Origin: a virus
Taxonomy: Duplodnaviria > Heunggongvirae > Uroviricota > Caudoviricetes
Reading direction: 5' to 3' (one strand)
Virus record (IMG/VR): IMGVR_UViG_2579778613_000002
Coordinates: 1-19,866 of that record
DNA length: 19,866 nt
The position numbers and the translations under genes are program-made. The notes under the pieces were generated by a model, which was not told the origin of the DNA, made no database searches, and saw only the letters and a program-made list of their open reading frames with translations. Below, piece after piece: positions 2 to 866 of this stretch; positions within the stretch are counted from its first letter, which is position 1, and every line of letters begins with the position of its first letter.

Positions 2-793
2 TTTCAGGCGTTGGGTGTGGATCACTATTGCACCGTTCGTGACAGAATAGTTCGATTGAATTTGTTTTAATGCCGGATACAGTTCGCGGAATAATGCCTG
101 TGAACGGTTAGCATAATCCCATAGCCATACAAGGCTGTTTGCTTCTTTTGCAGAAAGCTCGTTGGTTTTCTTCTCTTGTTTGCCGATGAACTCACCTTCA
201 AGTGGAACTCGAGCTGCAAGTGATAGTGCTTCGGTAAACTGCTCCTCACTGATTTCTTTGTACGAACATCCAAAATGGGATTTCAGTGACGACCACATGG
301 TGATCATCGCCTTAGCCTGTTTTTCTTTTGGCAGAGACTGACCGCGACTCATGACGAGTTGTTTAATGGCTTCCTGCTGCTCAGTGGTGATTTTACCCGG
401 CAACGCCTTTTTAGCTTTGCGTGGGTTAACTACATGGCCTTTAGTCCAGTACTCGTAGAGCACATCGTCACACTCTTCTTGATACTGGATTACATTGTCG
501 CGGATTTCAGGGCGGACTTTGTTAGGACTGATGGTTTGCAACCAGCCATTAAGTTTACGTAAAGCAAGGCAAATCATGTTCTGCACACCGCCAACTGAAG
601 GTATTGCGATTTCCACAATACCTTTAGCAAATCTTTGTTTTAACTTTGTAAACTGTGAAGCCCAATCCATACCCATTCCCTCAACGATAGGTTTCATTGG
701 GGTGTACGGCTCACCGTTGTGATTGACAACATAAAGCTCTGCGCCGTGGAATGGTACATTGATAGTAGATACTGCTGTTGCTATACTTTTCAT
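2..793 (-). CDS. ant: Antirepressor Ant-like protein, N-terminal 264 codons; 3' end lies beyond the window start
   Basis: Minus-strand ATG at 793-791 opens a frame that stays open for 264 codons to the window edge, which is why it is absent from the ORF track. Hand translation begins MKSIATAVSTINVPFHGAELYVVNHNGEPYTPMKPIVEGMGMDW..., resembling the N-terminal domain of P22-type antirepressors. It sits downstream of arc in an immI-like layout. Confidence 0.7.
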   Translation of the reverse strand, partial: MKSIATAVSTINVPFHGAELYVVNHNGEPYTPMKPIVEGMGMDWASQFTKLKQRFAKGIVEIAIPSVGGVQNMICLALRKLNGWLQTISPNKVRPEIRDNVIQYQEECDDVLYEYWTKGHVVNPRKAKKALPGKITTEQQEAIKQLVMSRGQSLPKEKQAKAMITMWSSLKSHFGCSYKEISEEQFTEALSLAARVPLEGEFIGKQEKKTNELSAKEANSLVWLWDYANRSQALFRELYPALKQIQSNYSVTNGAIVIHTQRLK

Positions 794-866
794 GTCGTTA
801 ATTCCTATGCGTGGTTTTACGATACCGAAGCCCTGACTGTTACCGCAGTTGGGGCTTCAACTTTCT
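794..866 (+). ncRNA. sar: sar-like small antisense RNA (about 70 nt) complementary to the ant start codon and RBS region
   Basis: Plus-strand promoter-like elements: -35 TTGATA (759-764), 17-bp spacer, -10 TATACT (782-787), predicted start near 794. Hairpin at 827-858 (GAAGCCC / GGGCTTC stem extended by ACTG/CAGT, hexaloop TTACCG) followed by a U-rich run AACTTTCTGCTCT. P22 has an antisense sar RNA of similar size at the equivalent position. Confidence 0.45.

Follow-up and report, generated by a model that had tools for sequence, protein, structure and literature searches.

Does the start of the antirepressor gene (ant) in this phage genome carry, on the opposite strand, a gene for a small antisense RNA of the kind known as sar in phage P22? 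The window analysed here, that is, the whole stretch of 19,866 nucleotides, represents the late region of a CUS-3-type P22-like phage of E. coli, with genes for injection proteins, head, portal and terminase. Its immI part is 97–99% identical to E. coli K1 phage CUS-3 and matches prophages of several E. coli genomes at 99.9% identity. An earlier note on this DNA had proposed a sar-like antisense RNA unit overlapping the translation start of ant. In P22, which was the subject of the primary work on sar (Liao et al. 1987, Wu et al. 1987 and Schaefer & McClure 1997, as cited in PMC2629481), sar prevents Ant synthesis from Pant and from late-operon transcripts that cross the ant moron toward the tailspike gene (PMC7968456, PMC2629481, PMC12111858), and small-RNA sequencing of P22 infection yields abundant sar reads (PMC13397905). 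Our comparison suggests, with a probability of about 0.9, that the window's element at ~794–863 (+) is orthologous to the sar gene of P22 and belongs to the immI region ('ant moron') of a P22-like phage of E. coli. The element itself is already known, and the window's sar is an ordinary, well-conserved copy of the P22-like antisense RNA.

The sar locus opposite the start of ant

The features on which the analysis draws are the following, with the basis of each in brackets.

1–793 (−): coding sequence of ant (antirepressor), ATG at 793–791, running off the left end of the window (translation and Pfam)
803–806 (−): ant Shine-Dalgarno sequence AGGA, 9 nt upstream of the ATG (read from the sequence)
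759–764 (+): −35 hexamer TTGATA of Psar, within ant codons 10–12, T-I-N (promoter scan)
779–787 (+): extended −10 TGcTATACT of Psar, within ant codons 3–5 (promoter scan and P22 alignment)
794–863 (+): predicted sar RNA, 69–71 nt, with its 3′ end at 862–864 (RF00262, our own covariance model and P22 alignment)
794–823 (+): sar stem-loop I, variable between phages, its apical part carrying the anti-Shine-Dalgarno UCCU at 803–806 (fold)
827–858 (+): sar stem-loop II, the terminator hairpin, identical to that of P22 (fold)
859–866 (+): weak U-tract AACUUUCU, directly 3′ of stem-loop II
857–1060 (−): ORF67, 67 aa, CxxC...CxxC, zinc-finger-like (ORF listing and phrog_7150 match)
1057–1197 (−): arc-like repressor gene, 46 aa (Pfam Arc, 37 bits)
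1228–1256 (−): Pant-like promoter TTGACT-17-TACTAT, which would drive arc-ORF67-ant toward Psar (consensus match only)
1303–1554 (+): mnt-like repressor gene, 83 aa, divergent from arc (Pfam Arc, 40 bits; phrog_795)

The gene facing the proposed RNA encodes a P22-type antirepressor, as its product matches Pfam P22_AR_N with 150.8 bits and P22_AR_C with 61.3 bits; E. coli STEC346 has an intact homologue of this ant, of 924 nt. On the plus strand, the Rfam sar family RF00262 matches the window at 795–862 with 85.7 bits (E 4e-17), spanning the full length of the model (positions 1–68 of 68). This score is twice the family's gathering score of 43 and lies far beyond chance, and a covariance model of our own matches 794–863 at 83.9 bits. 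The other marks of membership in RF00262 accompany the score: the two stem-loops, the location antisense to the ant leader, the placement of Psar and the immI context are all found in the window.

To compare the window with P22, we used the third-party annotation BK000583, in which the sar promoter, the sar antisense RNA, the terminator and the ant start are marked. The annotated P22 sar (717–786 of the P22 locus, L003) aligns to window 794 to ~863, and the Psar −10 and its spacing to the ant ATG align with the annotated P22 sar promoter (−10 at L003 705–710). Carried over to the window, the spacing of the P22 annotation gives Psar at 759–787, sar at 794–~863, the hairpin at 827–858 and the ant ATG at 793. 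The RNA start that the earlier note had placed at ~794 coincides by alignment with the annotated P22 sar 5′ end, and its end at 866 was about right when set against the predicted 3′ end at 862–864. The resemblance to P22 sar in size and position that it had described is likewise upheld, by a predicted RNA of 69–71 nt and a spacing matching that of annotated P22 sar.

The near-consensus promoter read from the sequence at the outset (TTGATA, 17 bp, TATACT) was recovered by our promoter scan at 759–787 (+). TTGATA (759–764) and TATACT (782–787), with a 17-nt spacer between them, agree with the consensus at 10/12 positions, and a TG at 779–780 turns the −10 into an extended −10. Psar is the best promoter-like site in window 1–3000, a stretch in which such sites are no more numerous than chance would give (4, compared to 6.6 expected in shuffles). 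As had been claimed, the promoter sits inside the ant coding sequence, within the first 12 codons. It faces away from the ant gene body; its −10 covers codons 3–5 (S-I-A, AGT ATA GCA on the minus strand) and ends 3 nt before the ant start codon. The window's −35 is the best in the set of 29 distinct Psar variants, with 5/6 consensus positions compared to 3/6 in P22. Since this hexamer coincides with the T-I-N codons of a conserved protein motif, TINVPF, the good −35 may be partly a by-product of the coding sequence.

An RNA starting at 794 is antisense to the Shine-Dalgarno sequence AGGA (806–803) and to the whole ant leader. The earlier proposal of a transcript antisense to both the ant ribosome-binding site and the ant start codon is correct for the former but not for the latter, because the RNA from 794 abuts the AUG without covering it; the sar transcript thus probably includes no complement of the ant start codon.

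A fold of 794–866 had been recommended with the original proposal; folding of the RNA 794–870 gave a pair of stem-loops, one at the 5′ end (794–823) and one of 14 bp (827–858), with −29.8 kcal/mol and z = −4.5; shuffled sequences folded as well in 0/200 cases. The complement of the whole RNA reaches only −20.2 kcal/mol. Stem-loop II, whose 14 bp include three G-U pairs and enclose the loop UACC, has a folding energy of −21.9 kcal/mol on the sar strand compared to −16.0 kcal/mol on the ant strand. The fold is weaker on the ant strand because G-U pairs turn into A-C mismatches there. Of the hairpin and U-run reported ~70 nt downstream of the promoter, the hairpin stands (827–858), whereas the U-run is the weak tract AACUUUCU. 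A simple, generic terminator scan does not call the hairpin with this tract, because AACUUUCU is too poor in U; the U-tract region equals P22's annotated sar terminator through AACUUU. We also considered the hairpin as a terminator of the sense (ant) transcript and rejected this, because on that strand the hairpin is less stable and is followed by GGUAUCGUAAAACC, which is not a U-tract.

These features suggest a mechanism along the lines of P22. A sigma-70 promoter, Psar with its extended −10, lying inside the first 12 ant codons and pointing in the opposite direction, would start an RNA of ~70 nt near G794. This RNA would fold into stem-loop I, bearing the anti-Shine-Dalgarno UCCU, and the terminator stem-loop II, and would end in the short U-tract at ~862–864. 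Since it is the exact complement of the ant leader, sar would pair with ant mRNA arriving from the Pant-like promoter or by read-through of the late operon, and the pairing would cover the ant ribosome-binding site and block translation of the antirepressor. We infer firing of the promoter, ending of the RNA at the terminator and repression of ant from P22, the one system from which there is evidence that a 68–69-nt sar transcript is made and represses ant (PMC13397905, PMC7968456). Convergent interference between Psar and the Pant-like promoter (1256–1228), both of which are predicted, is plausible. A literature search on Pant/Psar interplay, whose scope did not extend to the primary P22 sar papers, found nothing usable.

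Conservation of promoter and RNA structure in related loci

To place the window's copy among its relatives, loci were collected with an exact-match search for the terminator hairpin's stem, any loop being allowed, which returned 119 viral contigs; together with phage and genome loci these make up 77 distinct versions of the region. The layout is constant across 117–125 related loci: a −10, the ant CAT, a variable 5′ hairpin and a 3′ hairpin. In every locus, the −10, of the form TAnnnT, sits 3 nt before the ant CAT and the 3′ hairpin starts 30–34 nt after it. The invariance of stem-loop II in this set is partly by design, its sequence having been required for collection.

Among the distinct promoter variants, TATACT is found in 20/29 and a TG upstream of the −10 in 27/29. 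Ant codons 3–4 vary (S-I, S-V, S-L, N-L, I-V, N-V), yet TAnnnT is kept; codon 4 ends in A in every case, the rare Ile codon ATA included, and the wobble base of codon 5 is also held at A. We read this fixed wobble A as a sign that the promoter, and not the protein, is under constraint, since both it and TAnnnT are kept while the Ant N-termini differ.

Stem-loop I occurs in 33 distinct versions, of roughly eleven clearly different types. All 33 fold from nucleotide 1 of the predicted transcript, and all 33 are more stable on the sar strand, with a mean of −7.3 kcal/mol compared to −2.5 kcal/mol on the ant-mRNA strand, where here too G-U pairs turn into A-C mismatches. In a plain MAFFT alignment stem-loop I was out of register, and RNAalifold returned only the invariant hairpin and no covariation. 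A covariance model was built with the structure supplied, and its 77 hits, 61 of them distinct, were re-aligned. In this alignment of the 61 distinct sequences, which was itself fitted to the structure, paired cells make up 92.5%, compared to at most 49% when the partners are slid. The covariation score of 0.152 (0.064 in shuffles) was reached by 0/500 shuffles, controls that overstate significance because the sequences are related by descent. Changes on both sides are seen at 4/7 helix-1 pairs, and the figure of 77% paired for helix 1 is an underestimate, as the P22-type rows are one column out of register in this helix. In stem-loop II of phage TL-2011b, a more distant member found by similarity and not by the hairpin pattern, a U-A pair is replaced by G-C, a compensatory change.

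Directly observed are the features in the sequence, membership in the sar family, an architecture conserved among the loci and a conservation of structure that is strand-specific. The sar-like antisense unit of the earlier note is borne out by the full-length RF00262 match, the features aligned with P22, the P22-type Ant target and the structure-preserving variation on the sar strand.

One of the related loci has a disrupted target gene. In the prophage of E. coli TW14425 (L008, equivalent of window 782–848), ant is cut short by an element of the IS66 family; Psar there has the −10 TACACT, a hexamer also present in other loci, and the sar loop differs from that of the window.

The terminator hairpin as a mosaic junction, and other readings of the locus

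Across loci L009–L127, the hairpin (827–866 in the window) is the joint in 51 different pairings of 18 stem-loop I/ant types with 21 upstream-gene tails. The last nucleotides of its stem supply the TGA stop of at least nine unrelated small ORFs, which include ClpX-zinc-finger-like proteins and the window's ORF67. Tentatively, the 32-nt terminator hairpin may be a fixed joint for swapping the cargo gene just upstream of ant. Stem-loop I, for its part, might set up specificity classes for antisense control among P22-like prophages that share a host, as it varies and co-varies with the ant ribosome-binding site. We regard this pair of suggestions as possible, with the odds somewhat against it.

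The same mosaic pattern could be taken to mean that the hairpin survives as a conserved relic, or as a 'boundary sequence' for recombination, kept as a homology patch for module exchange, and that no functional RNA is made. CUS-3 indeed labels the whole ant-mnt gap 'bsq2; boundary sequence', and the 51 combinations of 18 stem-loop I types and 21 tails clearly make the hairpin a mosaic junction. We nevertheless consider this account improbable, since it leaves unexplained the extended −10 at its fixed distance, the compensatory changes in stem-loop I and the G-U bias toward folding on the sar strand. The roles of recombination patch and sar RNA are, moreover, not exclusive. We give marginally less credence still to the idea that the hairpins act mainly in the sense transcript, in the ant leader and at the 3′ end of ORF67, as an mRNA stabiliser, processing site or translational barrier, with the promoter-like site a by-product of the S-I-A codons. 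It is true that the complement also folds (−20.2 kcal/mol) and that S-I-A is a recurrent N-terminal peptide. However, stem-loop II and 33/33 stem-loop I variants are less stable on the ant strand, TAnnnT is kept although codons 3–4 encode varying amino acids, and the same sequences are annotated in P22 as promoter and RNA.

A chance co-occurrence of promoter-like hexamers with a hairpin is scarcely credible. Promoter-like sites are common enough (4 in 3 kb, with 6.6 expected in shuffles), but the E-value of 4e-17 for RF00262, a 40-nt terminator segment identical to P22 and an architecture kept in >100 loci have in effect already refuted such a coincidence.

The immI neighbourhood and comparison with known systems

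Between arc and ant lies ORF67 (MSKECCFCGISESD...CSDCVLDII). Its ATG overlaps the arc stop codon in ATGA, and its own TGA stop (859–857) is formed by the last two stem nucleotides of the sar terminator and the next base. ORF67 has a full-length match to phrog_7150, a family of unknown function, at 169 bits; searches of Pfam gave no hit even at E = 10, and ORF67 alone against PDB sequences gave only weak RING-finger matches. One sibling ORF, at the same slot in another phage, has a clear ClpX C4 zinc finger (43 bits), and a profile of four sibling ORFs matches the ClpX zinc-binding domain in the PDB with E 1.8e-8. A ClpX zinc-finger assignment for ORF67 itself was rejected, as the link rests on the sibling ORFs and ORF67 alone has no such match.

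A comparison published in 2008 held that CUS-3-type E. coli phages apparently lack arc, so that control of ant must differ in them (PMC2629481). CUS-3-type ant morons do carry arc: in the window a 46-aa Arc-family gene is present together with ORF67, and a protein identical to the window's Arc-like product bears the PGAP label 'Arc family DNA-binding protein'. The window therefore holds the full P22-style control set of a Mnt-like gene, an Arc-like gene and sar. Since all three are present, ant regulation in CUS-3-type E. coli phages is probably conventional.

In the arc-mnt gap (1198–1302), the Pant-like (1256–1228, −) and Pmnt-like (1246–1274, +) sites overlap at their −35 hexamers, a geometry that differs from the divergent promoters of P22, where the overlap is between the −10 of one promoter and the −35 of the opposite one. 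The gap also contains operator-like repeats, with GGTACGCAT present twice and a palindrome, TGTATGTGGTACGCATACA. Downstream of mnt, an ORF of 105 aa (1551–1868, +) with a signal-peptide-like N-terminus (MKRIAILLLLCLSSIANA) has a full-length match to phrog_19844, of unknown function, and no Pfam hit; it is possibly a lysogenic-conversion or moron cargo gene. A strong GC-rich hairpin at 2080–2101 (AAACCCACC TGAC GGTGGGTTT), with T-runs on both strands, resembles a terminator acting in both directions, placed between the late operon and the cargo genes on the mnt side. Near the small-terminase end of the late operon, and adjoining it, is a match to a second Rfam family, the int-alpA RNA RF02996 (18757–18819, −; 41.8 bits, gathering score 35.8, E 9e-6).

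Neither sar nor ORF67 is present in the annotations inspected, which were those of CUS-3 and of the RefSeq (PGAP) prophages of E. coli STEC346 and TW14425; at this locus in the two prophages, PGAP has the antirepressor and Arc-family proteins only. The main value of the present analysis is accordingly the annotation of sar, and of ORF67, in CUS-3-type relatives. The understanding of antisense control is unchanged by the window's sar, and the only mildly new points are the absent annotation in the CUS-3-type lineage and the terminator hairpin as a module boundary.

Set beside P22, the window is identical in the −10 region GCTATACT (extended −10 TGcTATACT), in TTCATGT around the ant start and, at 40/40 nt, across the terminator segment (ACCGAAGCCC...CAACTTT). 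In both phages the RNA starts 7 nt after the −10 and abuts the ant ATG, is antisense to the ant Shine-Dalgarno sequence and has the same two-hairpin shape (−29.5 kcal/mol in P22, −29.8 kcal/mol in the window), and in both it lies in an immI region with arc and mnt. The two differ in the sequence of stem-loop I, which is GUCGUUAAUUCCUAUGCGUGGUUUUACGAU in the window and GUUGGUUUUUCUCCAAGGAUUUACUGAC in P22; the window's is 1 nt longer and is followed by a linker of 3 nt rather than the 4 nt of P22. At the −35, the window has TTGATA, the better hexamer, in place of GTGTTA, and its ant has two fewer codons between −35 and −10. At the hairpin it is ORF67 that ends in the window and arc in P22; with ORF67 in between, the window's arc is 204 nt further away, and the distance from the Pant-like start to Psar is ~430 nt instead of ~260 nt.

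In Salmonella phage epsilon34 and other annotated P22-like phages, sar has been annotated by similarity to P22, as the window's copy can be. Unlike the window, these phages have the P22 type of stem-loop I, and arc directly upstream.

Beyond the P22-like phages, lambda OOP and IS10 RNA-OUT resemble sar in being small, structured and cis-encoded, with a promoter converging on the target and full complementarity to the target's 5′ or 3′ region. Both act in cis as short antisense RNAs, by blocking ribosome binding or triggering decay (general knowledge and PMC5415839). They differ from sar in that their sequences and structures are unrelated to it and their targets are different, and they are not members of the same family.
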